Positions 1 through 24,240 of a DNA stretch of 24,240 nt are shown here, in pieces. Origin of the DNA: a virus (lineage: Duplodnaviria; Caudoviricetes). Both the position numbers and the translations under genes were made by a program. The number at the start of each line of letters is the position of its first letter. Positions within the stretch are counted from its first letter, which is position 1. Below the pieces are notes generated by a model. The model was given only the letters and a program-made list of their open reading frames with translations, did not search any database and was not told where the DNA came from. Location of the stretch: positions 1-24,240 of IMG/VR virus record IMGVR_UViG_3300004829_000008, one strand, 5' to 3'.

Positions 1-875
1 TCATGCAATAACTGTTGCGCAAAACCGTTTCGCAATCCCCTCTTATTCTCAGGGAGTTGCTTATCGACCAGCACAACCGACTCATTATAAGTGCCACCGT
101 TAATCGTGGCAGAGTAGTACGAACTCATATTCATTGCTTGGTTCATACTATCAAGCATTTGCGACATAGCAAGAGAATTTGCAAACATTGCTGAATTGTC
201 TGCTGCAGCAAGTGCCTTTTCTAGACGTTCCTTGCTATCCTTTTCTTCTTCCTCTTCCCTTTCCGCTTGTTCCTTTTCGTCAACCGATTCTTCCTCTTCA
301 TAATCGGCATCAGTATTTCTGTCGAGTTCCACGTTCTCGTCAGCAGTAGCATCATATAGAGTAGTCATGTCAACCTCATAAATGTCTGGCATCGGTTGAA
401 CATAATCTGGGCAGTTAGGATCAAACTGCGGATCGTAACAAGGATCGACCTTGTATGTGTATACCACGTTTGGGTTCTCTACACTACCATTACCGTCTAC
501 CGTAATAGAACCATCTCCCCATGCCTGTCTAGGAATGTTTGGTACAATTGGCACAACCTTATTGATCTCTGTGCCACTCAAACTTCCTGGACGCCATTCG
601 TCAGTCTCACGGAAAATGTATCCAGTGCCCAGCGCATTCTCATTCTGTATAGTCACATCAACTTGTTCGTCAGTAGGTTTGACGATCGTATAGTTGTATA
701 TGATGTTCTGTACGTCTAATCCTGGAATACCACTAGGAAAAACGTTATCCATAGACCAAGTATTACCATTTGCTGCAGCATTTCCGCTGTAATCATAATA
801 CGGTGTGATGGAATCAGAATAAGAGTAGGATGCCCATGAGGACACCACCAATCCCAATAGCAGTTTCTTTAGCAT
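1..875 (-). CDS. Exported protein of unknown function, 3'-truncated by the window edge (signal peptide, Cys-pair motif DPCYDPQFDPNCPDY, acidic coiled-coil)
   Basis: Absent from the ORF track because it has no stop in the window. Hand translation from ATG at 875 stays open to position 1: MLKKLLLGLVVSSWASYSYSDSITPYYDYSGNAAANG...DPCYDPQFDPNCPDY...EEEEEKDSKERLEKALAAA...NKRGLRNGFAQQLLH. It overlaps the upstream gene by 62 bp. Confidence 0.85.
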   Translation of the reverse strand, partial: MLKKLLLGLVVSSWASYSYSDSITPYYDYSGNAAANGNTWSMDNVFPSGIPGLDVQNIIYNYTIVKPTDEQVDVTIQNENALGTGYIFRETDEWRPGSLSGTEINKVVPIVPNIPRQAWGDGSITVDGNGSVENPNVVYTYKVDPCYDPQFDPNCPDYVQPMPDIYEVDMTTLYDATADENVELDRNTDADYEEEESVDEKEQAEREEEEEKDSKERLEKALAAADNSAMFANSLAMSQMLDSMNQAMNMSSYYSATINGGTYNESVVLVDKQLPENKRGLRNGFAQQLLH

Positions 876-1359
876 TCGGTTTATCCATTGCTTCTAGTTC
901 TTGACGTGTAGTCTCAACGTGCGTTTCCCAACCCAACCTTGCTGCATCACCAATCTGCCCATTGTACGGACAAGGTGTACCAGCATGCATCATAGCATCA
1001 AAGACTTTCTGGTCTTGACACATGACTGATACTGCGGCAACCTTCATTCCCATATCGTACAGCGTCTTGGCATTCTTCAGACGAATACAGTTTTCTTCAG
1101 TGAACGTAGTACCAGCAGAGATACCAAGTATCTGAGTTTGTACTGCGCCAGCAACACCGATCGTACAAAGATCAGAGTTGTTGCCCGAACTGAACTGCGG
1201 TGAGATTGCAGATGGGGGTGGTTGTTTAATTGTAGTGGTCATCTGACCATTTGTGGTTACAGTGCTGTCTGTAGTCGACTCAGTGACAATCGGTTCTGCT
1301 AGAACCGTTGCAGGAAATAAAGACATAACGAAGAAAAGCACCTTGCACGATTTGCGCAT
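814..1359 (-). CDS. Exported, C-terminally membrane-anchored Cys-containing protein of unknown function
   Basis: GGAG RBS 7 nt before ATG at 1359, preferred over the track's start at 1392. Signal peptide MRKSCKVLFFVMSLFPATVLA; core PPPSAISP...DLCTIG...ENCIRL...MCQD...GTPCPY; hydrophobic tail IGIGGVLMGILLLF. Confidence 0.85.
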   Translation of the reverse strand: MRKSCKVLFFVMSLFPATVLAEPIVTESTTDSTVTTNGQMTTTIKQPPPSAISPQFSSGNNSDLCTIGVAGAVQTQILGISAGTTFTEENCIRLKNAKTLYDMGMKVAAVSVMCQDQKVFDAMMHAGTPCPYNGQIGDAARLGWETHVETTRQELEAMDKPNAKETAIGIGGVLMGILLLF

Positions 1360-1413
1360 AATGTTTCTCCAGTTAATTGTATAAGCGATCAAGTATTACG
1401 ACGATCACATGCC

Positions 1414-1488: not shown

Positions 1489-2010
1489 ATGACAAAATTA
1501 CTCCCCTTCGCACTTGCTGCTGCGATGTTTGTAACCCCTGCTTCCGCAAATGAGCAAAACACCACTACTACTTATCTTGATCCTGAGATTGTATGGTTGG
1601 CAAAGAACGTTTATTTTGAGGCACGCAACCAAGGTATTGCAGGACAACTAGCAGTTGCAATGGTAACACTAAACCGAGTAAAAGACCCCCGATTCCCCAA
1701 CACCATCGAAGAAGTTGTGACACAAGGTCTAACTCGAATCTCTTGGAAAACGGGCAAACCATTCCCTGTCCGCAATAAGTGCCAGTTCTCTTGGTACTGT
1801 GATGGTAAGTCGGACAAGATCCGTGACTGGGAAATGTTCCGAGAAATTTACAAATTGGTGTTGACTTATTACAATAATCAAGGTACAATACCTGATATCA
1901 CTGATGGAGCGACACACTACCACGCAGACTATGTAAGTCCTTCGTGGCGTAAGACTAAGACTCGCACCACAGAGATCGAAGACCATATTTTCTATCGCTG
2001 GGAGAAATAA
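1489..2010 (+). CDS. SleB/CwlJ-type cell wall hydrolase (Hydrolase_2 family) with signal peptide
   Basis: Motifs LAKNVYFEARNQ, AVAMVTLNRV, FPNTIEEVV, CQFSWYCDG, DITDGATHYHADYVSPSW, DHIFY. N-terminal MTKLLPFALAAAMFVTPASA; AAAGGA RBS. Confidence 0.92.
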   Translation: MTKLLPFALAAAMFVTPASANEQNTTTTYLDPEIVWLAKNVYFEARNQGIAGQLAVAMVTLNRVKDPRFPNTIEEVVTQGLTRISWKTGKPFPVRNKCQFSWYCDGKSDKIRDWEMFREIYKLVLTYYNNQGTIPDITDGATHYHADYVSPSWRKTKTRTTEIEDHIFYRWEK

Positions 2011-2231
2011 TGCTAGATTTGATGACAAAGCAACGGTTTTCTCAGATCATTGAGGAGACCGTGCTAGAAAAGAGACTATCCTATATGGATGCTATCTGTT
2101 GGTGGTGTGAACAGAATGAAATGGAAATTGATGTTGCTGCCAAGTTGGTTAATGGTGTCATCAAAGAAAAACTGCGTGTTGAATATCAGGACTTGAATTT
2201 TCTTGAAAAGGGTGCTAAACTACCTATATAA
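2010..2231 (+). CDS. gp33: Late promoter transcription coactivator gp33
   Basis: FSQIIEETV...LSYMDAICWWCEQNEMEID..AKLV...IKEKL..E..DLNFL...KLPI; gp33-gp59-gp32 synteny. Confidence 0.88.
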   Translation: MLDLMTKQRFSQIIEETVLEKRLSYMDAICWWCEQNEMEIDVAAKLVNGVIKEKLRVEYQDLNFLEKGAKLPI

Positions 2232-2242
2232 AATAGGAGTAT

Positions 2243-2845
2243 ATGATGACAGGGTTCGAAGCATACAAGACTTATCTTGCCGTTTCTAACCACTTCCGCA
2301 ATAAGTCGTACGACTACTTCAAGTACAACGGTGCGGTAAAAGTGAAAGCATCTTCATACGAAGTGCGCAAAGATAAATATTTTTTCGAGAAAGCATCTCG
2401 GAAGTTTAAAGAGGAGGATTTTCTAAAGTATCTCGTTTCTAATATGTGCTCAACTGGTGAGTACTGGATCGGAAACTTATTTGGTGGAAACAATCATGTC
2501 CATTACACTAAGTGGAAGAAGCACATAGAATCATTGACGTACAACTTCAAAGAGGAGATTGACTACCTATATGACGCTGAAGAACAGTTCAATAAACTGT
2601 TCGTTGATGATAGCGGAAAGCATCCGTTATTGTATCGCATGTATATGCGCAACAAGGTGTCCCTCGAAACGTTAGTATTGTTAGACTACTTGGTAGGGTA
2701 CACCAAAACGTGGAATAAGAGCGGTGATATGATGCTGCAGGAAGCATCTACGTTAATTAGTAAATACAAACCCTTCCTATTCCATTTCACTAATCCGTCT
2801 AAGGAAAAACTTAGAAAGACAGTATTGGAGATCTACCATGACTGA
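2243..2845 (+). CDS. gp59: Helicase loader gp59
   Basis: GFEAYKTYLAVSNHF...YDYFKYNG...RKDKYFFEK...SLETLVLLD...KYKPFL; AGGAG RBS; synteny. Confidence 0.9.
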   Translation: MMTGFEAYKTYLAVSNHFRNKSYDYFKYNGAVKVKASSYEVRKDKYFFEKASRKFKEEDFLKYLVSNMCSTGEYWIGNLFGGNNHVHYTKWKKHIESLTYNFKEEIDYLYDAEEQFNKLFVDDSGKHPLLYRMYMRNKVSLETLVLLDYLVGYTKTWNKSGDMMLQEASTLISKYKPFLFHFTNPSKEKLRKTVLEIYHD

Positions 2846-3014
2846 TAAAGAAGTAACTGCAACTTTGATTGAAGAAAACTCTCAACTCAAGGGTCGGGTC
2901 AAGGAACTAGAAACAACGATTGCTTATGTAGAAAGGGAACTCCAAGAGTTTCGGGAAGCAACAACCAATATTCAGAATGATATAGCATCAGCAAGAAAAA
3001 TGTATGCTGCTTGA
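2838..3014 (+). CDS. Small coiled-coil hypothetical protein (58 aa)
   Basis: Not in the track. GGAG RBS; ATG overlaps the end of gp59. MTDKEVTATLIEENSQLKGRVKELETTIAYVERELQEFREATTNIQNDIASARKMYAA shows a heptad pattern. Confidence 0.75.
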   Translation: MTDKEVTATLIEENSQLKGRVKELETTIAYVERELQEFREATTNIQNDIASARKMYAA

Positions 3015-3023
3015 AAAAAGTTG

Positions 3024-3052
3024 TTGACTTATCGAAAGGAGTAGGGTATACT
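3024..3052 (+). promoter_or_regulatory. Sigma70-type promoter for gp32
   Basis: TTGACT (3024-3029), 17 bp spacer, TATACT (3047-3052). Confidence 0.75.
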
Positions 3053-3060
3053 CTACTCCT
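3037..3060. repeat. 24-bp near-perfect inverted repeat over the gp32 -10 box
   Basis: AGGAGTAGGGTATACTCTACTCCT is self-complementary except for one G/T pair. Confidence 0.85.
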
Positions 3061-3123
3061 CGTTATGAAGAACGTGGACAAAAAACTAAAACTGTAATAC
3101 ACTGTTATACAAAGGAAAATACT

Positions 3124-4038
3124 ATGGCAAGTTCATTTGCATCTCTTAAGAAGTCTCGCAATGCTTCTCTAAACAAATTGCTGGCAGAGTCACAGAAAGT
3201 TGCTGGTGGCGAACAAGGTTCATCTAACGATGACAAGTTCTGGAAACCTACTGTCGACAAAGCAGGTAATGGTTATGCCGTTATCCGTTTCCTCCCTGAA
3301 CCTCAAGGTGAAGATCTACCATGGGTTCGTATCTTTAATCACGGTTTCCAAGATGTCGGTGGTTGGTACATCGAAAACTCCCTGACCACTCTTGGTGAGA
3401 ACGATCCAGTTTCAGAGTATAACTCTATGCTGTGGAATCGTGGTGACGATGCTGGTAAGGAACAGGCACGTAAGCAAAAACGTCGCCTCTCTTATATCTC
3501 AAACATCTATGTTGTGAAGGATCCAGGAAATCCTGCCAATGAAGGTAAGGTGTTCTTGTACCGTTATGGTAAGAAGATTTGGGATAAGTTGAACGAAGCA
3601 ATGAATCCTCAGTTTGAAGATGAGGATCCAATCAATCCTTTCGACTTCTGGGAAGGTGCTGACTTTAAATTGAAGATCCGTCAACTAGACGGTTATCGTA
3701 ACTACGACAAGTCGGAATTCGACCGTCCTTCAGAACTTCTGGGTGGCGACGACTCTGAGTTGGAGTCAGTTTACGAAGGTCTTAACTCTTTGCAAGAGTT
3801 CCTAGACCGCAAGAACTTCAAGTCCTATGACGAACTCAAGGCAAAACTTGACAAAGTCCTTGGACTTGCAGGTAGTCGACCAACTCCTCAGGCAACTGCC
3901 GATTCGTTTGAGGAAGATACTACGGTTGACATGGATGCTGGTAAGGTTGCGCCAGCACCCAAAGTTAGCGAGACAGTTTCTACCACCGAAGAGGATGACG
4001 ATGATTTGTCATTCTTCGAGAAACTCGCTGACGAGTAG
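3124..4038 (+). CDS. gp32: Single-stranded DNA-binding protein gp32 (Cys-free type lacking the T4 zinc ligands)
   Basis: FWKPTVDKAGNGYAVIRFLP, WYIENSLTTLGENDPVSE, NEGKVFLYRYGKKI, NPFDFWEGADFKLKIR, acidic tail DDDDLSFFEKLADE. Confidence 0.97.
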   Translation: MASSFASLKKSRNASLNKLLAESQKVAGGEQGSSNDDKFWKPTVDKAGNGYAVIRFLPEPQGEDLPWVRIFNHGFQDVGGWYIENSLTTLGENDPVSEYNSMLWNRGDDAGKEQARKQKRRLSYISNIYVVKDPGNPANEGKVFLYRYGKKIWDKLNEAMNPQFEDEDPINPFDFWEGADFKLKIRQLDGYRNYDKSEFDRPSELLGGDDSELESVYEGLNSLQEFLDRKNFKSYDELKAKLDKVLGLAGSRPTPQATADSFEEDTTVDMDAGKVAPAPKVSETVSTTEEDDDDLSFFEKLADE

Positions 4039-4094: not shown

Positions 4095-5924
4095 TTACCA
4101 GAATTCGTACCAAGCAGATTCCCTCTGCACTGGTTGACTTGCAGGAACTGCTGCAGCAGGAACCACAGTAGTTTGATTGACGCTCTGAGAACTATTAGTC
4201 TGAACAGTTGTTGGAGCAGATACGACAATTGGTTGACCAGTCTGAGCATCAACAAGTTGAGTTGATTGCCCTGCAACCTGAGCACCTGATAGACCACCAG
4301 CACCTGCACCAGTAGCAGTTCCAGACATTGGAGCAGCAGGTACACCAAACAACTCCATTAACATACCCTTCATCTTCTGACCAATGTTAAGGTCAATGCC
4401 AAGTATGCTACCGAAGTCAAGGAACGACATATCAAATTCACGCAACGCATCACCTAGACCCTCAAACGGATTAGGGAACGTTGGCATCTGGAAGTCAGGC
4501 ATTTGTGCCTTAATATTATCCCAACTCAAGTCCATACCAAAGATCTTACCAGTCTCTGGATCGTATACAAACTTCATCAGGTCTTTACCAAGACCAACGA
4601 TATAGTCTACTGGATTGAAACTCTCAGGAATCACCAGTTCGTCTTCACCGAACCCGAAAATACCTTTAATCCAATTCCATGCAGGTCTAACTACCCAGTC
4701 CATAACCTTCTGGGCAAATCCAGACCAAACACCAATATATCCTTCCCACAAATTTTTAAGTGCTGTTGTGGGATCTGTGAATAGAGTTTTAACCCAATCA
4801 ACTGCTTTCTTGAGGAAGTTGAATGCACCACCAATCATATCACTGATCAGAGTGGAGAAACTGAATGAATCTAATGTTTCCTCTGCCTTATCGAATCCAA
4901 ACTTACCAAGAACCCATGATACAGCAGACTTGAGCATATCCAATGGAGCACCAATAACCGAGGTCAATAACCCCTTCAGCGCACCTTCAAACCCACCAAG
5001 AATACCGTCTTGCTCAAACCCTTCGATAGCACCTTTAACAGTATCCCAAACCGCCATAATGATACCGAATGGAACAAACAGTCTACCAACAATACGTCCA
5101 ACAGTTCCCATAATCTTGATCACAGGTTGGAGCATGCTGAATGTTGTTCTGAATACGTTTGCGAGTCGACCAAAGAAACTGACACCCTTAACAACATCAT
5201 CTCCAGCACCAACAAAAACCTTGACTTGGCGAATGACATCCTTTAGCATATCGAATGCCTGAGTAAGTGGTTTGATTGTTAGATTCTTGAGTGTCTGTAT
5301 ACCTTTATTCTGCGCAATACGAGCAAAGAAATTGCGGATAGGGCGAAGTGCTTCCCACATCTTATTGAACCGCATATCCATACGTTTCGCAAAGACTTGG
5401 AACTTCGTTCGACCCATCTTCATGATATCATCGAACCACTGACCCATACCTCTGGTCAGAGTATCAAAGATACCTTCCATCTTAGCAATGAATCTGCTAC
5501 CCTTACCCTTAAAGATACTGTTGATGGTCTTAGCAAGTTCTGAGGCAAACCCAACTGCTGCTGCAGCAAGACCAGCAGTAATTGCAGCAATTGCTGCTGC
5601 AATACCTGCGAAGGAACTTTCTTCCTTCTCAACATTTACGTTGACGTCCCCTTCGTCCTTTTGCTTTCTTGCCTCTTCACGTGCTGCTTCGATACGTGCA
5701 AACTCTGCACGATCTGCTGCTGCTTCCGCTGCTGCCATTGCTTCACGTTGTAGGTCAAGTTGCTTACTGAAGGCATCATGTAGGCGATCGACAGACTTAG
5801 TTACGTTGAGTAATCCCGCACGCAAAGACTTTTGGAGTCGTTCACGGTTGTCTTTGTTTGATGCAGTCTGCTCTGCAAGAGCATTAACTATCGGTAAGTT
5901 AAGATCTGCCTTTTGCTTCGCCAT
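4095..5924 (-). CDS. Tape measure / baseplate hub protein (gp29-like)
   Basis: 609 aa; N-terminal coiled-coil, then amphipathic helices with spaced W/F residues, then a T/S/Q-rich tail (PIVVSAPTTV...). Lies downstream of gp26/gp51; length is close to T4 gp29 (590 aa). Confidence 0.75.
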   Translation of the reverse strand: MAKQKADLNLPIVNALAEQTASNKDNRERLQKSLRAGLLNVTKSVDRLHDAFSKQLDLQREAMAAAEAAADRAEFARIEAAREEARKQKDEGDVNVNVEKEESSFAGIAAAIAAITAGLAAAAVGFASELAKTINSIFKGKGSRFIAKMEGIFDTLTRGMGQWFDDIMKMGRTKFQVFAKRMDMRFNKMWEALRPIRNFFARIAQNKGIQTLKNLTIKPLTQAFDMLKDVIRQVKVFVGAGDDVVKGVSFFGRLANVFRTTFSMLQPVIKIMGTVGRIVGRLFVPFGIIMAVWDTVKGAIEGFEQDGILGGFEGALKGLLTSVIGAPLDMLKSAVSWVLGKFGFDKAEETLDSFSFSTLISDMIGGAFNFLKKAVDWVKTLFTDPTTALKNLWEGYIGVWSGFAQKVMDWVVRPAWNWIKGIFGFGEDELVIPESFNPVDYIVGLGKDLMKFVYDPETGKIFGMDLSWDNIKAQMPDFQMPTFPNPFEGLGDALREFDMSFLDFGSILGIDLNIGQKMKGMLMELFGVPAAPMSGTATGAGAGGLSGAQVAGQSTQLVDAQTGQPIVVSAPTTVQTNSSQSVNQTTVVPAAAVPASQPVQRESAWYEFW

Positions 5925-5936
5925 GATGGGTTATCC

Positions 5937-6269
5937 TTACTTTTTCTTTAGAGCATCAGCACCAAAGAATGCCGAAACCAATACTGCGATCGATGCAAAG
6001 TAAGTTGGTGCGATATCAGCGATCAGAGTTGCTGCTTTGTCTAGACCAATCACAGAAGTGACTGCGATCCCAATTGGATATACAAGCAAACCAATCAGTG
6101 AGAACCATGCCATTTTACGAATGGCATCTCGTTGTGCGTCCTGATCTTCCAATGCTTTCCTCTTAAATTCCAAATGCATCTCAAGTTCTTCTGCTGAGAT
6201 GTGACCGTCACCGTTTACGTCTGCTCCATCTAATGCGCCTGCATCGATAGTCTTGGTTTCTTCTGCCAT
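5937..6269 (-). CDS. EF-hand-containing two-TM membrane protein (holin-like candidate)
   Basis: Canonical 12-residue loop DVNGDGHISAEE; TMs MAWFSLIGLLVYPIGIAVTSVIGL and IAPTYFASIAVLVSAFFGA; basic tail KKK; AAAGGA RBS. Confidence 0.75.
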   Translation of the reverse strand: MAEETKTIDAGALDGADVNGDGHISAEELEMHLEFKRKALEDQDAQRDAIRKMAWFSLIGLLVYPIGIAVTSVIGLDKAATLIADIAPTYFASIAVLVSAFFGADALKKK

Positions 6270-6272
6270 GTG

Positions 6273-6455
6273 CTATTTCCTTTGTTTTTGTTTTTCTTCT
6301 TGTTCATCCAAGTAGTTCTTTAACAAAGTCACATAGATATCCCGCTCGAACGGGAGCATATTTTCGAGTTCAGTCAGACTATATTTATGATGCTGCATAA
6401 GGGCAAAGTTCAACTGATACATATTCGCTAGGGAATCATGTATCAGTCCTATTAG
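6273..6455 (-). CDS. gp51: gp51-like baseplate hub assembly chaperone C-terminal module (probably reached by -1 frameshift from gp26; first ATG at 6422)
   Basis: Not in the track. Reads LIGLIHDSLANMYQLNFALMQHHKYSLTELENMLPFERDIYVTLLKNYLDEQEEKQKQRK*. NFALMQHHKYSLTELENM.P.ER.IY is the signature of the short gp51 of marine T4-like phages. Confidence 0.85.
   Translation of the reverse strand, partial: LIGLIHDSLANMYQLNFALMQHHKYSLTELENMLPFERDIYVTLLKNYLDEQEEKQKQRK
6382..6389 (-). promoter_or_regulatory. Putative late promoter CATAAATA inside gp51, upstream of the EF-hand and tape measure genes
   Basis: One mismatch to TATAAATA; about 110 nt upstream of the ATG at 6269. Confidence 0.5.
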
Positions 6456-7150
6456 AAAAAACTTTGCAACCCTTCCAGTCTCACACTGTCTTCTTTACCG
6501 CATTCCTTACATGTCCACTTAACCTCGTGAGATAGTTTTGGCATGTCTTCAAAGAATTTGGTGATCTCTTGGAACTGCTGTTGACTTAATCCGTCAACCC
6601 ACTCGCTCATCTCATCTTCCGAGAAGTCAGAATATACATTCTCCTCATCGAAAACCTGATCAATACAGCGAACAATAATTCGCATCAGGTCTGCTTGGTT
6701 CTCTGTATCAATATCCGAAAGGTCGGACAGAGATGGGTATCGAACCTTGACACCGATGTCGTCTGTAATCTTGATAACGTTCTTGCGCATTTCGCCTTCT
6801 ACAACAATGTCATCAAGGTTAATTTGAATATCTGATTTGTGGGAACATTCGCTTTCGTCTGGGTGACCAATTTTCAGGTTCACTACCTCGCCCACAGACT
6901 TACCACGCAGTTTAAGGAATAGGTACTCGACATCAAACGTGGCAAGTTTACTTGCGTCTATCCCATCAGTGAGGATACACGAGTCAAGCAATTTAACAAC
7001 GGACTTGGTAATTTCCTTTTGGTCATTACCTTCCATTGCCATCAATAGAATCTTTTCTTCCTTAACCAGAAAAGGTCTATAACGAATTTCCTGTCCAGTG
7101 GACGGGATCTTAGCACCAAACTCGGGTGCCAATAACTTAGGAAGAGACAT
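6452..7150 (-). CDS. gp26: Baseplate hub assembly protein gp26-like
   Basis: MSLPKL, IPSTGQEIRYRPFLVKEEKILLMAME, LATFDVEYLFLKLRGKSVGE, FFEDMPKL, CKECG, LEGLQSFF. Confidence 0.9.
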   Translation of the reverse strand: MSLPKLLAPEFGAKIPSTGQEIRYRPFLVKEEKILLMAMEGNDQKEITKSVVKLLDSCILTDGIDASKLATFDVEYLFLKLRGKSVGEVVNLKIGHPDESECSHKSDIQINLDDIVVEGEMRKNVIKITDDIGVKVRYPSLSDLSDIDTENQADLMRIIVRCIDQVFDEENVYSDFSEDEMSEWVDGLSQQQFQEITKFFEDMPKLSHEVKWTCKECGKEDSVRLEGLQSFF

Positions 7151-7172
7151 AATTTACTCCATTCTTTAGTAA

Positions 7173-7907
7173 TTAAAAAGGTAGACTGCTTCTAATCTTC
7201 GCAAATGGCAATCCATCAACATTCGCATTTAGGACACCTAACGCAGTGTCAGCATTAAAGTTACCCAATCCAGGAACTCTGAGAGAACCTGCTAGACCAC
7301 CCTTGCCAAGTTTGAAACCAAATCCAAATCCCAATCCAGGTTGATCTTGTTTGTTGAATACAACTCTGTAATACTTATACGCAAAGGTGATGCCGAGTTT
7401 TGCAGGTTGGTCGTCACCCCATCCCATTTGAACATCACCCATCATAATAGGGTATGCTTCAACTAGAGTATGGATGGAACGTAGATCCCCTGCTTGACCA
7501 TACTGGCGAATAGTTACCATGCCAGCATACTGATCAAAGTATTTGGTGTTGAAGGTGGCATTAGAGAATCGACCGTTGCTCTGAGTGAACGCACCAGTAC
7601 CAACCATCTTGTCTTGCCAGACTTCAAAGTATTCCTTTTCACGCATATCTTCAGACAACAGGAAAGTTACTGTGGTATCAGAATACACCTGACCATAAGC
7701 AACCTTGTTTACTGGACCATAGTTCGTAAACTTATGTTCTGCTGTCGTGATCGACCTTCCAGGAAGTGATGCTGAGTCTGCACGGTACATCATATCACGT
7801 TCAGCATCAAGTCCGTATGGACCAGTAATCTGAACCTCAAAGTGAGATGCCTTAGCAAACCCTTGCTTACTAAGACTTGATATCATGTTGTTGATATTAA
7901 ACGTCAT
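7173..7907 (-). CDS. Tail tube-fold protein; baseplate-tail tube initiator (gp54/gp19-like)
   Basis: FEVQI...SASLPGRSITT...YGPVNKVAYGQVYSD..VTFLLSEDMREKEYFEVWQ...LVEAYP..MG....W.......L.ITFAY; position after gp2. Confidence 0.8.
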   Translation of the reverse strand: MTFNINNMISSLSKQGFAKASHFEVQITGPYGLDAERDMMYRADSASLPGRSITTAEHKFTNYGPVNKVAYGQVYSDTTVTFLLSEDMREKEYFEVWQDKMVGTGAFTQSNGRFSNATFNTKYFDQYAGMVTIRQYGQAGDLRSIHTLVEAYPIMMGDVQMGWGDDQPAKLGITFAYKYYRVVFNKQDQPGLGFGFGFKLGKGGLAGSLRVPGLGNFNADTALGVLNANVDGLPFAKIRSSLPF

Positions 7908-8488
7908 GTGATCATTTTCCTACTGTCTGCCCAAACCGCTGCTTTACTTGCTTTCGCAAATCTCTCTGTTGGTAAGAACAAAGCGATATCCCACTCGGTT
8001 GAGTTAATCTCTATAAATTGACTATTCACGTGTTTTGCGAGATAATGCTTGAAACACGGTTTGAATGCTCTATATTTAGAAGCACTGGTCAATACGTTAT
8101 AAGATAATTTAATCTTGGTGTTCTCATCATACTTCCTATCAGAAGCAATAGTGTAGAGTGAGTCCATCAACTTAGCACGTAGATTAGGTGGAAGGTAATG
8201 TAGGTTGATCCCATAGAAACCACCGTCCGCAAAACCAACCATAAAGATCAATGGAAACTTATCGTAGTACGGCAAGGTCTTTTTGTGTTTTGGGTCGTAC
8301 ATGAAGTGATACATGCGACCAATACCAACACGAGGTTTCTTGTCGTCACTGTTCGCCAGAATCTTGTTTGGGGTTGTTCTGCTCTTCTGCGCAGTATCAC
8401 GGAACCACTGTCTTGCTGCTTTTGTCCTTGCAGGGATTTGCCCCTTGCGGACGCCACGCAGTAGTATATCGTCAAAGACTGATGCCAT
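7904..8488 (-). CDS. gp2: DNA end protector protein gp2
   Basis: AARQWFR, IGRMYHFMYDPKHKKTLPYYDKFPLIF, GFYGINLHYLPP, PCFKHYL, WDIALFLPTERF, VWADS. Confidence 0.93.
   Translation of the reverse strand: MASVFDDILLRGVRKGQIPARTKAARQWFRDTAQKSRTTPNKILANSDDKKPRVGIGRMYHFMYDPKHKKTLPYYDKFPLIFMVGFADGGFYGINLHYLPPNLRAKLMDSLYTIASDRKYDENTKIKLSYNVLTSASKYRAFKPCFKHYLAKHVNSQFIEINSTEWDIALFLPTERFAKASKAAVWADSRKMIT
8073..8080 (-). promoter_or_regulatory. Putative late promoter variant TCTAAATA upstream of the gp54-like gene
   Basis: CTAAATA-type variant about 165 nt upstream of the ATG at 7907. Confidence 0.35.
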
Positions 8489-10061: not shown

Positions 10062-10070
10062 GATAGATAG

Positions 10071-12016: not shown

Positions 12017-12017
12017 G

Positions 12018-12869: not shown

Positions 12870-12880
12870 GGAGAAATAAA

Positions 12881-13054: not shown

Positions 13055-13161
13055 AGGTGAATTTGATCACCTCAGCGATCACGTGGATCAAGAACAAGTT
13101 CGCAAACAATCGCTGAAGTCTGGACTATTATCATTTCTAAATCGAATCGAGAAAATTGAAG

Positions 13162-15619: not shown

Positions 15620-17395
15620 ATGGCAGCAGCAAATAGTTACTTACAGGTTACGGAACTTGACTTTGCGGATATCCGCTCTAATCTAAAGTCATACCTAAGC
15701 ACACAAGACCAATTCCAAGACTATGACTTCGAAGGTTCTTCGATGTCTGTTCTTCTAGATTTGCTTGCATACAATACGCATTACAATTCGTATTATGTTA
15801 ATATGCTTGCAAACGAAATGTTCTTGGATACTGCTCAGCAAAGGGATTCCGTTGTTTCATTCGCAAAGACGTTGGGTTATACTCCTGTGTCTGCCATCGG
15901 TGCTTCTGCTAACGTTCAGGTGACGTTTACAGGGTTTGCTAATACTGTGAACCAAGTAACGATCCCACGGAACTCAAAGTTCTCAACGACCATCGATGAC
16001 ATTCAGTACACATACGTCACCCCTCAGGCATATACGGTTATCCGTGACTTTGACACAAACACTTTCGTAAAAGATATTACTATCAAAGAAGGTTTGCCTC
16101 TGACTCATCGTTGGGTATATGATGCGAACAATCCGAAGCGATTTATTATCCCTAACAAGAATGTTGATATCACAAGTATCCGTGTGAGTGTTCAGGCATC
16201 AGGTACTGATACAGAGGTTACACAATATACTCGTGCAACTAACATCAACCAAGTTTTCTCTACCTCTGCTGTATACTTTGTTGAAGAAGCAGCAGACGAG
16301 AAATATGAGATTATCTTTGGTCAAGGTGCGCTGGGTAAGAGGATTATCAACGGTAATATCGTTATTGTGGAATACCTTGTGTGTAATGGCGAGGACACTA
16401 ACGGTGCGAAAACTTTCTCTATCGACACACTCAACGTTGGAGAGACATATGATACCGCAAAGGTGACGAAAGTCAACACCTCTTCACGTGGTGGTCGTCC
16501 TCCAGAAACTATCGAGTCTATTAAATTTAACGCACCAAGAAACTACCAGACACAGAACCGTGCAGTTATTGATAATGACTACGAACGAATTTTGTTAGCA
16601 GAAAACCCAGACCTTCAGTCGGTTACTGCTTATGGTGGCGAGAAAGCAAATCCTCCTGTATATGGTAAGGTGTTTATTGCAGCAAAACCTTTTGGCGAGC
16701 AATTCATCACTGCTACTCGTAAGCAACAACTAAGGGAATCAATTATCAATCGTACTTCGCTTGCTATTGATCCTGTGTTTGTGGATGCTGATTATATCTA
16801 CCTTGTTCCGATGATCACAACTTATTTCGATAAGACTAATAGCACAGAAACTAATGCTTCGGTCGAAGATGCTATCAGAACTGCAATTGCAGATTACTCT
16901 GTTAATAACCTAGAACGTTTTGGCAACAGACTGAGATATTCTAGATTCGTTCGTGCACTAGATAATACTGATCGTGGTTCTATTCTAAACAACGATGCTT
17001 CGATTAAACTAGAGAAGCGTTTCGTCCCAGACCTTCAAAGAAAGACTAAGGTTGAGTTGGATTATAGCAACCCAATCACTGTTGGTTCAGTAGAATCTAC
17101 TCAGTTCACTTTCGGTGGATTTGAGTGTTTCTTGGATGATGATAGTAAAGGTAATATTCGAATTATCCGATACAATGACTTGAAGCAAAAGGTTGCCGTT
17201 GAAAGTAAAGCAGGGACAGTAGACTATACCTCTGGACTTGTAACGATTAATGCCTTCCTCCCGACTGCATATTCTGGTATCGAGATTAAAGTTGGCGTAT
17301 TCTCTGATAGACTAGACGTTATCCCATTAAGAGAACAAATCCTTATTATGAATGCTCAGGAAGCAGACATCAAAGTAATTGCTGAGGTAACTTAA
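15620..17395 (+). CDS. gp6: Baseplate wedge subunit gp6
   Basis: ELDFADIRSNLK.YL, DYDFEGS.MSVLLDLLAYNTHYN, NEMFLDTA, LGYTP, ESIKFNAP..Y.TQNRAV..DY, YGKVFI. Confidence 0.96.
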   Translation: MAAANSYLQVTELDFADIRSNLKSYLSTQDQFQDYDFEGSSMSVLLDLLAYNTHYNSYYVNMLANEMFLDTAQQRDSVVSFAKTLGYTPVSAIGASANVQVTFTGFANTVNQVTIPRNSKFSTTIDDIQYTYVTPQAYTVIRDFDTNTFVKDITIKEGLPLTHRWVYDANNPKRFIIPNKNVDITSIRVSVQASGTDTEVTQYTRATNINQVFSTSAVYFVEEAADEKYEIIFGQGALGKRIINGNIVIVEYLVCNGEDTNGAKTFSIDTLNVGETYDTAKVTKVNTSSRGGRPPETIESIKFNAPRNYQTQNRAVIDNDYERILLAENPDLQSVTAYGGEKANPPVYGKVFIAAKPFGEQFITATRKQQLRESIINRTSLAIDPVFVDADYIYLVPMITTYFDKTNSTETNASVEDAIRTAIADYSVNNLERFGNRLRYSRFVRALDNTDRGSILNNDASIKLEKRFVPDLQRKTKVELDYSNPITVGSVESTQFTFGGFECFLDDDSKGNIRIIRYNDLKQKVAVESKAGTVDYTSGLVTINAFLPTAYSGIEIKVGVFSDRLDVIPLREQILIMNAQEADIKVIAEVT

Positions 17396-17399
17396 CTAA

Positions 17400-20246
17400 A
17401 TGGCGACAGAAAAGATCTCATCTTTAGTTAAATCGCAACTCCCCTCTTTCTATCAAGAAGAGGGCGAGAACTTCATTGCGTTCATGGAAGCATACTATGA
17501 ATACATGGAGCAAAACGGCAAACTAACAGATACCGTCCGCAACTTGACTTCGTACCGAGATATCTCGACAACGACAGATGAGTTTATCAATTATTTCATA
17601 TCGTCTTTCTTGCCTTCTATTCCTCTTGATGCGGTAGCAGACAAAAAGACTCTAGTCAAATATATTAAGTATTTCAACCAGACACGTGGTACAAATGCTT
17701 CATATAGACTACTATTCCGTGCATTGTATAATGAAGACATCGACTTCAGTTTCCCTGCCGATCAGATGCTTAAAGTATCAAACGGTGATTGGAGAATTGA
17801 CAGATATCTTGTTACCGACTATGATGAAAACACATATAAGTTTATCGGAAAGACTATTGTTGGCGCAGACTCTGGTGCTCAGGCACTTGTAGAAGATATT
17901 GTAAGACGTGGTATCCGTGGTCGTGATATTATGCAAGTTATTGTATCTAATATCAAAGGCGAATTCTATAACAAAGAACCGATTACTCTTCTTTCTGAAT
18001 TGGGAAGTTCTGGTAATCCGCATGCCCCTATTATTGAGGCGGGTATCAATGGAGTTTCTATTGTTACTGCAGGTTCGTTCTATAAAGTCGGTGATGTAGT
18101 AGATCTTATTTCTAAAGAACGAGGCAAGTTTGCTAAAGTCGTTATCACAGCGACTCAAGACTTGGGTGGTTCTCTAGTATACTCGCTGAACGATGGTGGT
18201 TCAGGTTACACTTCTTCTGGCGAAGAAGGTGGCACAAGTATCGAATTTATTTCTGGTGATGGTTTGCCAGAAGGTTCTTTCGAAATTAGATACCCTGATA
18301 TTGTAGATACTTTTGCTATTGCAGTCAACACAAATAAAGTAAATTCGAATACTATTTACGGAAGTTCTGCTCCGACAGTAACATTCCCTGATGGTTCTAC
18401 TCAACCAATGAACACGTTCGCTAACGTATGCCTTGCTGCAGTAGATTACGGATTCCCAGAAGATGGGCAGCAAGTAAGTGACAGCAAAGACTACTTTGAT
18501 CAGGAAAATGCTAAATTAAAAATATCTTCTCCATCGGATCCTAATGTATCTGTTGGCGATATTCTTATTGGTCAGACGTCAGGTGCGAATGCGGTAGTGA
18601 CAGCAGTCACAACCTATAATAGCACTTCAGTGGTTGCGACAACAAACGGTTATTCGCAATTTGCAAATAGCGAAAACGTCCTTAAAGTCGGTTCAACTAT
18701 TGGTACTGCGACATACTGGGGCAACACCGCAGGTTCTATTATCCTTCAGGTTGGTTACGATTCTGTTTCGCATTCTATTGGTGAGGGTGACGAGATTATT
18801 GGTCTAGTCACAGGTGCTCGTGGTATTGTTAAGAAGGTTCTTGGTGATACTGCTCCAGTGCTAGACTACGACTATGATAATGACTCTGTTAATGAGTGGT
18901 CAACATACACGCTAAAGGTTGCAGCAAATAATACATCAAACCTAACAAGTCAATTCTCTTGTGGACCAATTAAACAGTTCGTTGAAGATGAGGGTATTGC
19001 TAAAGTATCAGCACCATCGGTTTCTGTTGGTAACGTTATATTTGACACCTCAAATACTGTTGTCGAAAATATTTACAGTAAACTGAGCGATGCTTTCCTA
19101 TTCAAAACCACTACAATGGGTACAATCGGTAAGTTGTCTCTGCAGACAGGTGGTGAGGGTTATTCATTCCCACCAACTATCCGTGTTCGTGAAAACGACA
19201 TTGCTGCATTGGGCATTGGTGAAGCATACCTGACTATTCAATCTGATGACGAAAACTGGGGAACTGGTAACTCGTCTATCACTAAGGTTGACACGACAGA
19301 CAGACTTTATCAGTCTTCAACTACTGCTAGTGGCGATATTAAAGCAGGTTCTAAAGGTAACGATCCAGTTGCTACTCCAGTGCAGTATGCAAATGGCACA
19401 TACGAATCTGTTATCCGTGTTTGGCAGGATTCTCAGCAGAGAACTCCAGGAAGCATCATGTGGGCAAACAATGCTACTGTTCGCCTTGACTTCTATGATG
19501 GTGACTATATTCCATTTGGTTCCGACAACAGAAGTCTGGTTGCTACTGGTTCTGCTAAGATCGTCAACGTACAAGACGAAGGTGTTCTAGGTCAGAATGC
19601 CGACATTACTGCAACTGTTGGTGCGGACGGTACTGCTACTGGTATTCGTGTTCTTGATTCTGGTTTCGCATACCAAGACCAAGAGATTGTTCTTATCGAA
19701 GCACGCACAGACCGTAATGCTGGCGCAACTTCTGCGGAACTTAAATTGTCATTGGGTAGTGTGGCAAATGGTGAAGGTTATTATGCGTCGACACGTGGTC
19801 ACCTAGACTCTAAACGATCATTCATTCAGGACAGTAACTACTATCAAGAATATTCTTATGAGGTTATCTCTCCTATCTCGCTTGATCGATACCGTGAAGT
19901 CGCACTTAAACTGGTACACCCTGCAGGTCAGGCACTGTTTGGCAAATACCAAGCGAAAAGTAATGCTGCCGTTGAAGTCACAGCATCTTCTGCAAGCACC
20001 AAAAAGGTTCGTGTTGGCGGTACACTGACTGTGACTAACGGAAGTAACAACATTGTTGGTTCTGGGTCTAATTTCTTGACTACATTGAGCAATAACGGTA
20101 TACTTACAATTGAGATTGCTCCAAAAGAATACCAGCAAGTCAGACTAAATATTGTCAGCAGCGATACAACAGCAAACATTGTTGGTAACTGGTCAAACTC
20201 TACGTTGACAGGTGCCAGCGCATATTATCAGTCGGGAACGATTTAA
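17400..20246 (+). CDS. Baseplate wedge initiator gp7-like
   Basis: ISSLVKSQLP.F..E...FIAFMEAYYEYME, RGT.ASYRLLFRALYNE, IQDSNYYQEYSYEV, LVHPAG..LFG; lies between gp6 and gp8. Confidence 0.85.
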   Translation: MATEKISSLVKSQLPSFYQEEGENFIAFMEAYYEYMEQNGKLTDTVRNLTSYRDISTTTDEFINYFISSFLPSIPLDAVADKKTLVKYIKYFNQTRGTNASYRLLFRALYNEDIDFSFPADQMLKVSNGDWRIDRYLVTDYDENTYKFIGKTIVGADSGAQALVEDIVRRGIRGRDIMQVIVSNIKGEFYNKEPITLLSELGSSGNPHAPIIEAGINGVSIVTAGSFYKVGDVVDLISKERGKFAKVVITATQDLGGSLVYSLNDGGSGYTSSGEEGGTSIEFISGDGLPEGSFEIRYPDIVDTFAIAVNTNKVNSNTIYGSSAPTVTFPDGSTQPMNTFANVCLAAVDYGFPEDGQQVSDSKDYFDQENAKLKISSPSDPNVSVGDILIGQTSGANAVVTAVTTYNSTSVVATTNGYSQFANSENVLKVGSTIGTATYWGNTAGSIILQVGYDSVSHSIGEGDEIIGLVTGARGIVKKVLGDTAPVLDYDYDNDSVNEWSTYTLKVAANNTSNLTSQFSCGPIKQFVEDEGIAKVSAPSVSVGNVIFDTSNTVVENIYSKLSDAFLFKTTTMGTIGKLSLQTGGEGYSFPPTIRVRENDIAALGIGEAYLTIQSDDENWGTGNSSITKVDTTDRLYQSSTTASGDIKAGSKGNDPVATPVQYANGTYESVIRVWQDSQQRTPGSIMWANNATVRLDFYDGDYIPFGSDNRSLVATGSAKIVNVQDEGVLGQNADITATVGADGTATGIRVLDSGFAYQDQEIVLIEARTDRNAGATSAELKLSLGSVANGEGYYASTRGHLDSKRSFIQDSNYYQEYSYEVISPISLDRYREVALKLVHPAGQALFGKYQAKSNAAVEVTASSASTKKVRVGGTLTVTNGSNNIVGSGSNFLTTLSNNGILTIEIAPKEYQQVRLNIVSSDTTANIVGNWSNSTLTGASAYYQSGTI
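20144..20151 (+). promoter_or_regulatory. Putative late promoter variant ACTAAATA upstream of gp8
   Basis: About 96 nt upstream of the ATG at 20248. Confidence 0.4.
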
Positions 20247-20247
20247 G

Positions 20248-22026
20248 ATGGCAACGTATAGATACGCAACCAAAGACCTTTCAATCACGAATGCAGAAGC
20301 ATTTATTCATTCTATTCAGGATGATGAAGACAGCGCAAGCAAAAAAGAGTCTACGATTCTATATGCGGTTCTTGGTAAAAACTCCCCCTACACAAATGAA
20401 CCAGAACCAGAGAAACCTGAAGATAACGAACAATATCTCCACTATGATGTAATGCGCAACTTTATTGGTGGTAAGAAGGTTACTGCCGAAGATGCCAGTC
20501 ACGTAACAGAACGTGTTGACTGGGTATCTGGTGAAGTATATTCTATGTATCGTGATCGTGATGAGGATATGTACGACCGTCCTTTTTACGTTTTGACAGA
20601 CGAGATGAACGTATACAAGTGTTTGTATAATAACAAAGGTGCTGCATCTACCGTCAAACCAACAGGGTTCTCAACTGTATCTTTCGGAACTTCAGACGGT
20701 TATATTTGGAAATATATGTTCACCGTAACGCTCGGTGATGCAAACAAATTCTTAACTTCAACTCATATTCCTGTTAGATCATATAGTAATGACGGTACAT
20801 CAGAATCAGACCGAGCACTTGCCGTTCAAGGTGCAGCAGTAAACGGTGCGATTGAAGTTATCGAAACGAACCAAGTTGGTTCTGGTTACCATCAGGTTGC
20901 TAATGGTCAGGTTGCTGCTGGCGGTAAATATATTCTAACTCTTGATACGTCAAGCGACAACCCACCATCTTCTATCGACAACTTCTACACTGGCGGTAGC
21001 GTATATGTTAAGTCTGGTACTGGTGCAGGTCAATTGCGTCGTATCATCAACTGGGAAGGTTCTTCTCGGACACTTACTGTAAACACTGCGTTTGCTACTG
21101 TATGTAACTCAGATTCACGTGTTATCATTTCACCGACTGTTACTGTTATTGGTGATGGTAAAGGTGCGAAAGCATATACTCAGGTTGACGAAGATACTGG
21201 TGGTATTAAGAACATCACTGTTATTGATACTGGTCGAGATTACACTCGTGCTAAAGCATTGATCAGTGCTAACTCTATCCACGGTGCAGGTGCAACTGCC
21301 AACGTTGTTATGTCTCCGCTTGGTGGACATGGTAGCAATCCTATTCGTGAGTTGTACGCTGATAAGGTTTGTTTGAACGTTCAGTTCGATGGCATTGAGG
21401 GCGTGTCTGCTAACGGTAACGGATATATTCCGACTGATGTCGACTTCCGTTCTATCAGTATCCTTAAAGACCCTGTTCTTAAATGTGATGCGAATAATAA
21501 CATTACTGCAGAGTCTGTTGCTAACACATCAAACTCTCCTGATACACTACGATTTACTACTCGTATGCAAATCTCGTATTTGCAGATGGCAAACAATACT
21601 CCAGTTAATCCGCTCGAAACTCTTGACGTTATTACAAACGAAAGAAATAGATTGCGTGCTGAATTAGGTGAGTTGGAATTTGTTACAGAACTTAACCCAC
21701 TTAAACGTGCAGACCAATCAATGAAGTTTGCGCTGCAAGGTGCTAATGCTCACATCGTACATATTTCTGACGATGAGACAGAATCCGACCCAACCTTCTA
21801 TGTTGCGTATATAAATAACGTAGAAAGTTATGGCGAGTATGCCCCATTCACTAAAGATGACGTGATTCTGAAGGCAGGGGATGCAACTGCGGTAGCAACA
21901 GTGGAAACGATCAAAGGTCCAGAAGCAAACACTTTCTCAGGCGAGGTTATCTATACTGAAAATACTCGTGTTGTGACAAGAGACCCAGATCAAATTGAAG
22001 ATATTAAAATCATTCTAGATTTCTAA
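20248..22026 (+). CDS. gp8: Baseplate wedge subunit gp8
   Basis: RVDWVSGEVYSMY, FYVLTDEMNVYKCLYN, DGYIWKYMFT, GGHGSNP..EL, SGEVIY.EN....R...Q.EDIKIILDF. ATG at 20248 follows the gp7 stop. Confidence 0.92.
   Translation: MATYRYATKDLSITNAEAFIHSIQDDEDSASKKESTILYAVLGKNSPYTNEPEPEKPEDNEQYLHYDVMRNFIGGKKVTAEDASHVTERVDWVSGEVYSMYRDRDEDMYDRPFYVLTDEMNVYKCLYNNKGAASTVKPTGFSTVSFGTSDGYIWKYMFTVTLGDANKFLTSTHIPVRSYSNDGTSESDRALAVQGAAVNGAIEVIETNQVGSGYHQVANGQVAAGGKYILTLDTSSDNPPSSIDNFYTGGSVYVKSGTGAGQLRRIINWEGSSRTLTVNTAFATVCNSDSRVIISPTVTVIGDGKGAKAYTQVDEDTGGIKNITVIDTGRDYTRAKALISANSIHGAGATANVVMSPLGGHGSNPIRELYADKVCLNVQFDGIEGVSANGNGYIPTDVDFRSISILKDPVLKCDANNNITAESVANTSNSPDTLRFTTRMQISYLQMANNTPVNPLETLDVITNERNRLRAELGELEFVTELNPLKRADQSMKFALQGANAHIVHISDDETESDPTFYVAYINNVESYGEYAPFTKDDVILKAGDATAVATVETIKGPEANTFSGEVIYTENTRVVTRDPDQIEDIKIILDF
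21810..21817 (+). promoter_or_regulatory. Late promoter TATAAATA inside gp8, upstream of the VrlC-like gene
   Basis: Perfect consensus about 225 nt upstream of the ATG at 22041. Confidence 0.6.
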
Positions 22027-22040
22027 AGGTAGAGAGATAA

Positions 22041-24240
22041 ATGGCAATCGAAACCAATCTAAATCAGAGTCCGTACTTCGACGATTATTCTGAAAGTAAA
22101 GACTTTCATCGGATTCTGTTCCGTCCTGGATATGGCGTTCAGGCAAGAGAACTGACGCAACTCCAGACAATCATGCAAACTCAGATCGAAAGGTTTGCGA
22201 ATGAGGTTGTCATTGACGGCACTATAATCACTGGTTGTGGTCTCTCGACCGACACTGTCGGATACGTTAAACTGCGAGACAAGAACAAGAATAATAACAT
22301 TCTCCTTCTTGGTCAATTCTATGACGGTAGCAAGGTTGCTAATGCAGTTGTTACTGGCGAAACTTCTGGCGTGACTGCTCGACTGGTTGACGTTGCTGAA
22401 GGTTCTGAAGCAGCAGCACCAGACTACCTGACTATGTTTGTCCACTACACTAACTCTGGTACAAACAAAACGTCTAAGCAGTTCTTGGATGGCGAATCTC
22501 TTCGCTTGACTACTACTGGCACAAATAATACAATTCTATATGCCAACACAATCACTTCTGGTGCAACTGGTGTTGGTCTAAGAGCAGCAATCACCGATGG
22601 TATCGTATACCATAAAGGACATTTCCTTCGTGTAGAAAACCAATCTGCCATTGTTGGTAAATACACCCACCGTCCTTCCAAGAAAATTGGTTTCCGTACA
22701 CTCGAAAGTATTGTAGATTCCAACCAAGACTCTTCATTGCTTGATAACGCAACTGGTGCAACTAACTACTCTGCTCCAGGTTCGAACCGTCTCAAGATGG
22801 TTCCTACTCTTTCTGTATACGACTACAATTACGCAAACACAGAAAACTTCTTCTTGCTTGCGACTATCAACGAAGGTTCGGTAGAATCTCGTAACGATGA
22901 TACCACCTATTCTGATATCGGTAAATACATTGCTTCTCAGTTCCATGATACAAACGGCAACTATGTAACAGATCCGTTTAGTATTCGTATGCGTGAGCAC
23001 CTTAACAAACCAAATAGTCTTGGTCGATACACTGCTGGCGAAAGCGGTGATGCTAACAAACTTGTTGCTGAGATCGAAAAGGGTCGTGGTTATGTAAACG
23101 GTTTCAAAGTAGAGCAGTTCGGTGCTTCTTACCTTGATGTAAATAAAGCAACTGTATCAAATACTTCTACTGGCATTGCCATTTCTCAGGCAGTCGGCAA
23201 CTATGTTATCGTTGACGATGTTGCTGGTGGTTGGGATATGCAGGAACTTTCTGAGGTTTCTCTTCGCTCAGCATTTGGTAATGCGGTAACTGACGCAACT
23301 CACTCTTCTACTTCTATTCCAGGAAGTGAAGTTGGTACTGCTAAAGTCCGTGGTTTTGAGTGGGACTCTGGCACTAAAGGTACTCCAGATTGTAAATATC
23401 GTCTATACCTATTCGACATCCAGATGAATGGCGGTAAGTCTTTCGCAAACGATGTTCGCTCTTTTGTTATCCAAGATGCTATGGGTTCTGGTAAGCATGC
23501 CCTTGCTGATGCGGTTCAAGAAAGCAGTAAGACTGTTCTTAAAGAAACAAGTTTGCTTCCTCTGGTATACAAAACTGGTTTCTTTGCTACTAAGTCTCAC
23601 AGCGATGTTCAGTGGGTTACTCGTAAGAAGTTTGAGGGTATCGGTATTGCTGTTGGCGGTACTGGTGATGCTGCTCTTAACACAGACGGTGGCACAAACC
23701 TTGCTACTGGTGGCGCAGAGGACTTCAACGATGGCGGTGCAACTATCTCTCTCGAAGATCACCGTAAGTATATCATCGTATCTCGAACAGCAACTAAGAC
23801 TGTTGACCTGACTGGTACTATCAGCAGTGTTTCTGGCACGACTGTTACTGGTAGCGGAACTTCGTTCACGACTGAATATGAAGTTGGTGACCTAGTTGAC
23901 GTCACTATCAGTTCGACTGAAACAGCGATTGGTTACATTGAATCTATCGACAGCGATACTCAGATTACTCTGACTGATACTGCGTTGGCAACGTTTACTG
24001 GTGCGACAAACACTCACCGTGCTTCGTTCCCTGTTGGACACGTATGGAATCTGCAGAACAAAGAAAGTCCTGCTATCCTTTCTGAACCAACTAACGGCAC
24101 TCTTGACATCGATTTCCAAAGAACGTTTGATACTTCGTTCACTGTTGATATCTACTTCGATGTCGTTAAGACCTCTGCTGCTGGTGCTAAGAAAACTGTT
24201 AATAAGAATAAGATGGTTCGTATTAACACTGGTTCTCACT
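22041..24240 (+). CDS. Large virion structural protein, VrlC/DUF4815-like (3'-truncated by the window edge)
   Basis: Absent from the track (no stop). Starts MAIETNLNQSPYFDDYSESKDFHRILFRPGYGVQARELTQLQTIMQTQIERF; contains SLLDNATGATNYSAPGSNRLK; the same frame is open at the window end (...AGAKKTVNKNKMVRINTGSH). Confidence 0.9.
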   Translation, partial: MAIETNLNQSPYFDDYSESKDFHRILFRPGYGVQARELTQLQTIMQTQIERFANEVVIDGTIITGCGLSTDTVGYVKLRDKNKNNNILLLGQFYDGSKVANAVVTGETSGVTARLVDVAEGSEAAAPDYLTMFVHYTNSGTNKTSKQFLDGESLRLTTTGTNNTILYANTITSGATGVGLRAAITDGIVYHKGHFLRVENQSAIVGKYTHRPSKKIGFRTLESIVDSNQDSSLLDNATGATNYSAPGSNRLKMVPTLSVYDYNYANTENFFLLATINEGSVESRNDDTTYSDIGKYIASQFHDTNGNYVTDPFSIRMREHLNKPNSLGRYTAGESGDANKLVAEIEKGRGYVNGFKVEQFGASYLDVNKATVSNTSTGIAISQAVGNYVIVDDVAGGWDMQELSEVSLRSAFGNAVTDATHSSTSIPGSEVGTAKVRGFEWDSGTKGTPDCKYRLYLFDIQMNGGKSFANDVRSFVIQDAMGSGKHALADAVQESSKTVLKETSLLPLVYKTGFFATKSHSDVQWVTRKKFEGIGIAVGGTGDAALNTDGGTNLATGGAEDFNDGGATISLEDHRKYIIVSRTATKTVDLTGTISSVSGTTVTGSGTSFTTEYEVGDLVDVTISSTETAIGYIESIDSDTQITLTDTALATFTGATNTHRASFPVGHVWNLQNKESPAILSEPTNGTLDIDFQRTFDTSFTVDIYFDVVKTSAAGAKKTVNKNKMVRINTGSH

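Follow-up and report, generated by a model that had tools for sequence, protein, structure and literature searches.

The avoidance of short restriction sites by viruses is usually read as a record of host defence and is used to guess hosts. Rusinov et al. 2018 (PMC6286503), in the part of the paper considered here, tied such avoidance to the restriction systems of the hosts. For the word RGCY (PuGCPy), the characterised cutter is CviJI, which is encoded by a chlorovirus, and the restriction enzymes of chloroviruses are believed to break down the chromatin of the host (PMC7019647, likewise considered in part). RGCY is also the commonest methylated motif in the viral metagenome-assembled genomes (MAGs) of Hiraoka et al. 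2022 (n = 9; PMC8919816, of which a part was covered), where the sole prokaryotic entry for RGCY methylation is a 224-kb bin of 0% completeness; these authors doubted an anti-host role of the viral methylases and left their purpose open. Here we analysed a stretch of 24,240 nucleotides of tailed-phage DNA (IMG/VR record IMGVR_UViG_3300004829_000008, positions 1 to 24,240; hereafter the window), from which RGCY is completely absent.

The window shares with the cases of Rusinov et al. the elimination of short type II-like sites by a lytic double-stranded DNA phage; in this case, however, the word is degenerate, is depleted over unrelated hosts and costs amino acids, and the purge seems better matched by phage-borne enzymes than by the host systems considered in that part of their work. 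The likeness to the CviJI system consists in the core word PuGCPy and in a host-DNA-destroying virus nuclease, which is here proposed, but chloroviruses infect algae and protect themselves by an adjacent methylase, whereas here the protection would be the absence of the sites. In the covered part of PMC8919816, marine myoviruses, phages of the same broad type, methylate the same words (RGCY, CCWGG and GGWCC), and a methylating phage is depleted too; these phages retain and methylate some sites, whereas the window lineage has none. The MjaI-family gene of cyanophages, described below, resembles our case in that a T4-like phage carries its own type II nuclease in an orphan state together with an exact-zero word, but there a visible gene goes with the word CTAG, whereas the RGCY counterpart is a postulated gene. 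We found no description of RGCY purging in phages in the literature searched, most subscription journals lying outside it. Site elimination itself is already established, and an RGCY purge with a proposed phage-borne cutter extends it.

Counted on both strands of the window (G+C content 42.7%), RGCY was observed 0 times, against 226.8 ± 12.9 in 100 dinucleotide shuffles. Each of AGCT, GGCC, AGCC and GGCT had a count of 0, and for AGCC/GGCT 108 were expected. The absence over 24 kb, which the first-pass annotation had proposed from a manual scan, is therefore exact. The same annotation had listed words that remain frequent and palindromes that remain present, and our counts agree (AGCA 183, GGCA 100, AGCG 43, GGCG 55; GATC 106, TCGA 99, GTAC 68, ACGT 107, TGCA 122, GCGC 23); it was right about the loss of RGCY but overlooked that CCGG (0 vs 31 expected) and CGCG (0 vs 34 expected) are missing too. 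RGCY, CCGG and CGCG all have an observed-to-expected ratio (O/E) <0.1 with >15 sites expected, which is the threshold of PMC6286503. As a null for coding DNA we shuffled synonymous codons 300 times, with proteins and codon usage preserved. The expectation was 77, 21, 34 and 51 for AGCT, GGCC, AGCC and GGCT, respectively (sum 183), and the lowest values among the 300 shuffles were 61, 11, 22 and 30. Codon usage, which had been named as a possible explanation, does not account for the loss. Precisely, the Ala codons GCT and GCC occur in the window only after T or C, and GGC and AGC only before A or G.

With a second null, which already forbids RGCY, CCGG and CGCG, we tested 432 patterns in coding DNA. 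RGCGCY was found 0 times vs 16.9 expected (0 vs 7.8 in a separate test), and by counts against shuffles neither strand of 1..24240 holds any RGCY, CCGG, CGCG or RGCGCY. Under the second null GTTAAC was also missing (0 vs 9.2), CGNCG (9 vs 49.7) and GCSGC (2 vs 17.2) were low, and so were CCWGG (14 vs 31.5), GGWCC (7 vs 17.4) and AATT (85 vs 130). Beside the reduction of CGNCG, we note that for three viral MAGs the part of PMC8919816 covered lists Hpy99I-like genes, whose word is CGWCG.

The avoidance is also visible in the proteins. After Lys, Glu, Gln, Met or Trp, whose codons end in a purine, Ala occurs 97 times vs 110.6 expected, and these 97 codons are GCA in 89 cases and GCG in 8. Trp-Pro codons always spell GGCC. 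The window has no Trp-Pro vs 2.95 expected, a value that is weak alone, and the clade member G022 has none vs 9.8 expected, while Pro-Trp occurs there 9 times. In the baseplate wedge subunit at 10071..10646 (+ strand; PHROG 232), which we take to be the counterpart of T4 gp53, the homolog alignment shows Trp-Pro in 39 of 51 distinct homologous contexts at a position where the window has Met-Pro (codons at 10323..10328, + strand). This Trp was lost in 8/20 GGCC-purged loci (O/E <0.2) vs 0/31 others (p = 2e-4, with rows that are not independent). The loss of Trp-Pro means a pressure strong enough to change a conserved motif of a virion protein. RGCY, CCGG and CGCG were removed by codon choice and, in at least one place, likely by an amino-acid change. 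The strong selection on RGCY suggested by the first-pass annotation is supported by the recoded Ala, the lost gp53 Trp and the codon-aware null.

A mapping over related phages, as had been suggested, showed that near relatives are RGCY-free and that sister branches purge other words. Among the best nine gp59 matches, some of which are redundant assemblies, RGCY is 0 in 8/9 and the ninth has two GGCC. The partial genome of G022 has RGCY 0 of 754 expected in 102,203 bases and retains CCGG (61/106, observed/expected here and below) and CGCG (150/125). The sister G023 keeps AGCT (445/443), with CCGG at 0/49, GGCC at 5/97 and ACGT at 6/186. In a quick version of the clade tree, the nearest relative of the window additionally lacks ACGT and GTAC, both present in the window, and four loci with low but non-zero RGCY (L501, L503, L505 and L507) lie about 0.1 substitutions/site from the exact-zero L502 and L508. 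The sets of purged words change across short branches. In a set of 197 viral loci with a length of 5 kb or more, which includes redundant ones, most purged words are 4-base palindromes, and their combinations vary. In the related phage G005, the locus L017 has AGCT, GGCC and GATC at 0 but retains AGCC/GGCT (36 of 95 expected), whereas its sister L006 has lost AGCT, GGCC, AGCC and GGCT. Since L017 keeps AGCC/GGCT without AGCT and GGCC, and L006 lost all four, RGCY is a separate target class; AluI plus HaeIII as cause is ruled out by this contrast, which agrees with the single degenerate specificity read by the first-pass annotation.

Over whole genomes, the RGCY O/E of cultured phages is 0.13-0.24 for five cyanophages, 0.27 for Pelagibacter phage HTVC008M and 0.35 for OM43 phage Melnitz-3. 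G012-G014 have values of 0.15-0.18, and G011 has 0.55. Because RGCY is depleted in T4-like phages of cyanobacteria, SAR11 and OM43, its purge is no single-host fingerprint. The proposal that RGCY could identify the host finds no support in these O/E values of 0.13-0.35 in seven cultured phages of unrelated hosts, nor in the family proposed as host for a sister phage, which does not avoid AGCC/GGCT. In the genomes G012-G016 (L453-L490), RGCY varies regionally, with 0-15 per 20 kb in a small-gene region and up to 83 elsewhere; T4-like genomes are usually circularly permuted, which is at odds with such regional differences. As for the RGCY-positive viral MAGs, the part of PMC8919816 covered lists GGCC-type N4-methylcytosine methylase homologs in five of them (V1, V9, V14, V21 and V22) and none for V20 and V24, V34 and V59 lying outside the part covered for these homologs. 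V1 has 644 RGCY motif counts in 248 kb, against a base-composition estimate of about 1,900 sites per strand, and is thus depleted.

In other T4-like phages, which word is purged follows the phage's own nuclease in the case of CTAG and, with less consistency, in that of GTAC; all the nuclease specificities used here are either presumed or derived from correlation. We had set the expectation of an orphan nuclease behind exact-zero words before the gene of S-SM2 was found. S-SM2 has CTAG at 0/520 and a lone MjaI-family gene (L274 10147-10671; Pfam E = 1e-46), the specificity of MjaI presumably being CTAG; it has no PF01555 match and no methylase among the 50 non-core open reading frames (ORFs) scanned. 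Among the compared complete genomes S-SM2 is unique in having both the CTAG zero and an MjaI-family gene. By GenBank annotation the carriers of the family are S-SM2 (orphan), S-H9-2, S-RIM32 and S-CAM3. In three phages with an MjaI-family gene and an adjacent methylase, CTAG was 2/39, 3/37 and 3/37 in 12.5 kb, and ten genomes without a gene of this family had a CTAG O/E of 0.66-0.96.

A second nuclease family (PADLOC REase_II, E = 1.5e-16) is unannotated and often stands beside a small methylase-like gene; examples are L264 17465-18073 in S-RIM44 and L455 1593-2189 in G012. GTAC was 0 in 4/8 loci in which this gene is an orphan vs 1/19 in which it lies beside a methylase-like gene (p = 0.017), after duplicates and loci with <600 bases downstream had been dropped. 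Counts were 0/544 and 0/462 in the orphan carriers S-RIM44 and G012, respectively, vs 322/507 in the methylase-paired G014. We had also considered the nuclease of S-RIM44 and P-HM1 as a cutter of CCGG or RGCY, and dropped this since its loci track GTAC. A PADLOC scan of 428 non-core ORFs of 13 phage genomes and 106 ORFs of the clade and the window yielded four families resembling restriction endonucleases and one weak match (E = 0.007), none of the families tracking RGCY. A 336-aa ORF of G022 that had been a nuclease candidate is a PF01555 methylase. Two unannotated cyanophage protein families (L479 6580-7920 and L460 6446-7276) had no match in Pfam, NCBIfam or PDB; they come from CCGG-free genomes, and we take their motifs to be PD-(D/E)XK-like. 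In the early-gene region of G015 (L483 13251-19362), two nuclease-methylase pairs and a third methylase lie within 6 kb.

In our judgement, it is very likely that a nuclease acts on RGCY. A phage-borne nuclease had not been considered in the first-pass annotation. We give about even chances to the cutter being a phage-borne nuclease, most likely the phage's own methylase-free gene. Short-site restriction-type nucleases would cut RGCY, CCGG and CGCG, and the phage would shed these words; the RGCY cutter would be a methylase-free gene in the unsequenced remainder of the phage's own genome. In the course of infection this nuclease would attack the DNA of the host, and perhaps that of rival phages, but would meet no target in the phage's own genome. 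For CCGG and CGCG other enzymes may be responsible, host ones included. A phage-borne enzyme is favoured because the exact zero reaches Trp-Pro, because the words switch rapidly among sisters and the depletion is broad across hosts, and because RGCY methylation is virus-restricted and CTAG provides a precedent. The virus origin of the characterised cutter CviJI points the same way.

Several observations weigh against a phage-borne cutter. P-HM1 (179/633) and ACG-2014f C16 (12/41, in 10.6 kb) carry orphan genes of the GTAC family but show no purge. CCGG is exactly 0 in 8/11 large genomes in which no CCGG nuclease was recognised, so an exact zero needs no detectable own enzyme. In ACG-2014f RGCY is only mildly low (62 of 100 in 14 kb). 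Neither the window nor the 45 ORFs scanned of G022, a genome 57% complete, yielded an RGCY nuclease, and profile searches overlook divergent nucleases, which bears on the missing enzyme. Furthermore, single-molecule real-time (SMRT) sequencing detects 5-methylcytosine poorly (PMC8919816, part covered), so host RGCY methylation could be hidden. Finally, the SUP05-type host family, in which HpaII and HaeIII genes occur, avoids ACGT, GGCC and CCGG like the dsrA-carrying sister phages. This last point touches the alternative in which type II systems of the host population target RGCY, CCGG and CGCG and the phage eliminates the sites, the main rival explanation, which we regard as less likely than not. 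Elimination of this kind is well documented for lytic phages, being complete or near-complete in about a tenth of viral genomes in the part of PMC6286503 considered. The closest gp32 relatives of the window carry dsrA (above the TIGR02064 cut-off), rhodanese, porin and PstS genes, and the phage dsrA is nearest that of SUP05-type bacteria (72-74%), although no dsrA was found beside gp33 in the window. C5 methylases are plentiful in 4/5 SUP05-type genomes, with HpaII-family genes in 7/81 and HaeIII-family genes in 4/81 genomes of these bacteria. Host restriction is real in this clade for some words and probably explains part of the CCGG, GGCC and ACGT signal. For RGCY it fits less well. Many SUP05-type loci avoid ACGT, GGCC, CCGG and AGCT, yet their AGCC/GGCT counts mostly stay close to the expected ones (110/113, 129/109 and 119/102 are examples; one locus has 60/106), and phages whose hosts differ widely are depleted in RGCY. 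In the covered part of PMC8919816, marine prokaryotic MAGs have almost no intact type II pairs (four only) and no RGCY motif. The SUP05-type evidence concerns sister phages of the window.

The other explanations are less probable. In one, the phage avoids becoming methylated, since a host or phage methylase would mark the words and expose the DNA to a modification-dependent (type IV) nuclease; every purged word has a C in a context typical for cytosine methylases, and the words RGCY, CCWGG and GGWCC, which marine myoviruses methylate (PMC8919816, part covered), are absent or low in the window. Many related phages encode cytosine methylases, however, which would be harmful under such a mechanism, and we consider it improbable. 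Mutational erosion, in which RGCY, CCGG and CGCG vanish as their methylated C turns into T, had been the second proposal of the first-pass annotation. At amino-acid-identical aligned sites with RGCY in a relative, 40/74 show a G>A and/or C>T difference in the central GC, as deamination would produce, and the RGCY-methylating phage V1 is depleted as well; the remaining 34/74 sites differ by other changes, the relatives being distant and the test weak. Constrained Ala codons were recoded to GCA, a transversion, and a conserved Trp was replaced. Decay should spare constrained sites, yet G022 has 0 of 754. The 57% of the G022 genome available yielded no D12-class methylase, and five fragments from the clade or near it yielded no C5 methylase; all these records are partial. 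Searches of clade or near-clade fragments gave 0/5 for each of PF00145, PF01555 and PF02086. Since the avoidance reaches the amino-acid level, erosion is disfavoured; mutation alone appears an unlikely cause of the RGCY loss, and we hold this explanation to be quite improbable. An artefact of composition, codon usage or library preparation deserves almost no credit. The window is, in fact, a single unextended contig, but independent viral and metagenome assemblies have the purge too, codon-aware nulls exclude composition, and codon context is adjusted gene by gene; the codon-shuffle null, the clade-wide zeros and the 0 of 754 in G022 refute it.

Tentatively, we suggest that aquatic T4-like phages practise restriction without modification by means of swappable short-site nucleases directed at host and rival DNA, with self marked by site erasure, and that a circulating, undescribed RGCY cutter might be the threat behind the purges of RGCY as well as the orphan RGCY methylases of marine myoviruses. 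If purges in these phages also record the phages' own nucleases, host guesses drawn from avoidance mislead, and from missing words one could predict what unannotated phage nucleases recognise. It would also give a testable purpose to the viral methylases left unexplained in the covered part of Hiraoka et al. (PMC8919816), and would point to an RGCY cutter in viruses of prokaryotes, a specificity so far characterised in chloroviruses.

The window is the helicase-loader, single-stranded DNA-binding, tail and baseplate (structural) module of a T4-like phage, with its core replication and contractile-tail genes in T4-like order. PHROG matches were obtained for 21/23 ORFs, including helicase loader, single-stranded DNA-binding protein, hub, wedge and PAAR, and no methylase or restriction nuclease was found among the window ORFs in the PHROG and PADLOC scans. 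On the + strand, a cell-wall hydrolase (Hydrolase_2; 1489..2010) is followed at 2010..4038 by a late-promoter regulator, a helicase loader and a single-stranded DNA-binding protein (gp33, gp59 and gp32-like by PHROG), with which relatives were sought. The - strand carries at 4095..8928 a tape-measure-like gene, a small EF-hand gene, a baseplate hub, a tail-tube-like gene, a DNA end protector and a head-closure gene. Again on the + strand, 8940..14936 holds a tail-tube cap, the wedge, a hub, a P-loop kinase-like ORF, a gp5-like gene with a CHAP domain and PAAR, and 15227..24239 holds the baseplate wedge genes (gp25, gp6, gp7 and gp8-like), after which a large virion protein starts. The kinase-like ORF (283 aa; 12018-12869, +) lies between the hub and gp5 genes; it has no Pfam match, and a language-model search returned zeta-toxin-like phage P-loop kinases with a score of 0.97. 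Cultured relatives are distant, with identities up to 65% for gp32 and of 39.8% for gp6 among the matches listed, and the best ones are labelled Kyanoviridae. Several near metagenome relatives bear marine titles.

The closest gp32 relative (L002 241-8813) carries dsrA, rhodanese, a weak match to a sulfur-globule protein, porin and PstS, and from this gene content it is likely a phage of a sulfur oxidiser. In Melnitz-3 (L290 4010-6191), a C5 cytosine methylase is followed by a Tet/JBP-like oxygenase, an arrangement that suggests cytosine hypermodification. HTVC008M (L282-L289) has TCAAGA at 0/81 and AGTACT at 0/40, and P-TIM40 (L317-L326) has GAAC at 104/1433. Finally, a bAvd-like gene at the contig end of G001 (L152 18559-19592), after tail-fibre-like genes, hints at a diversity-generating retroelement.

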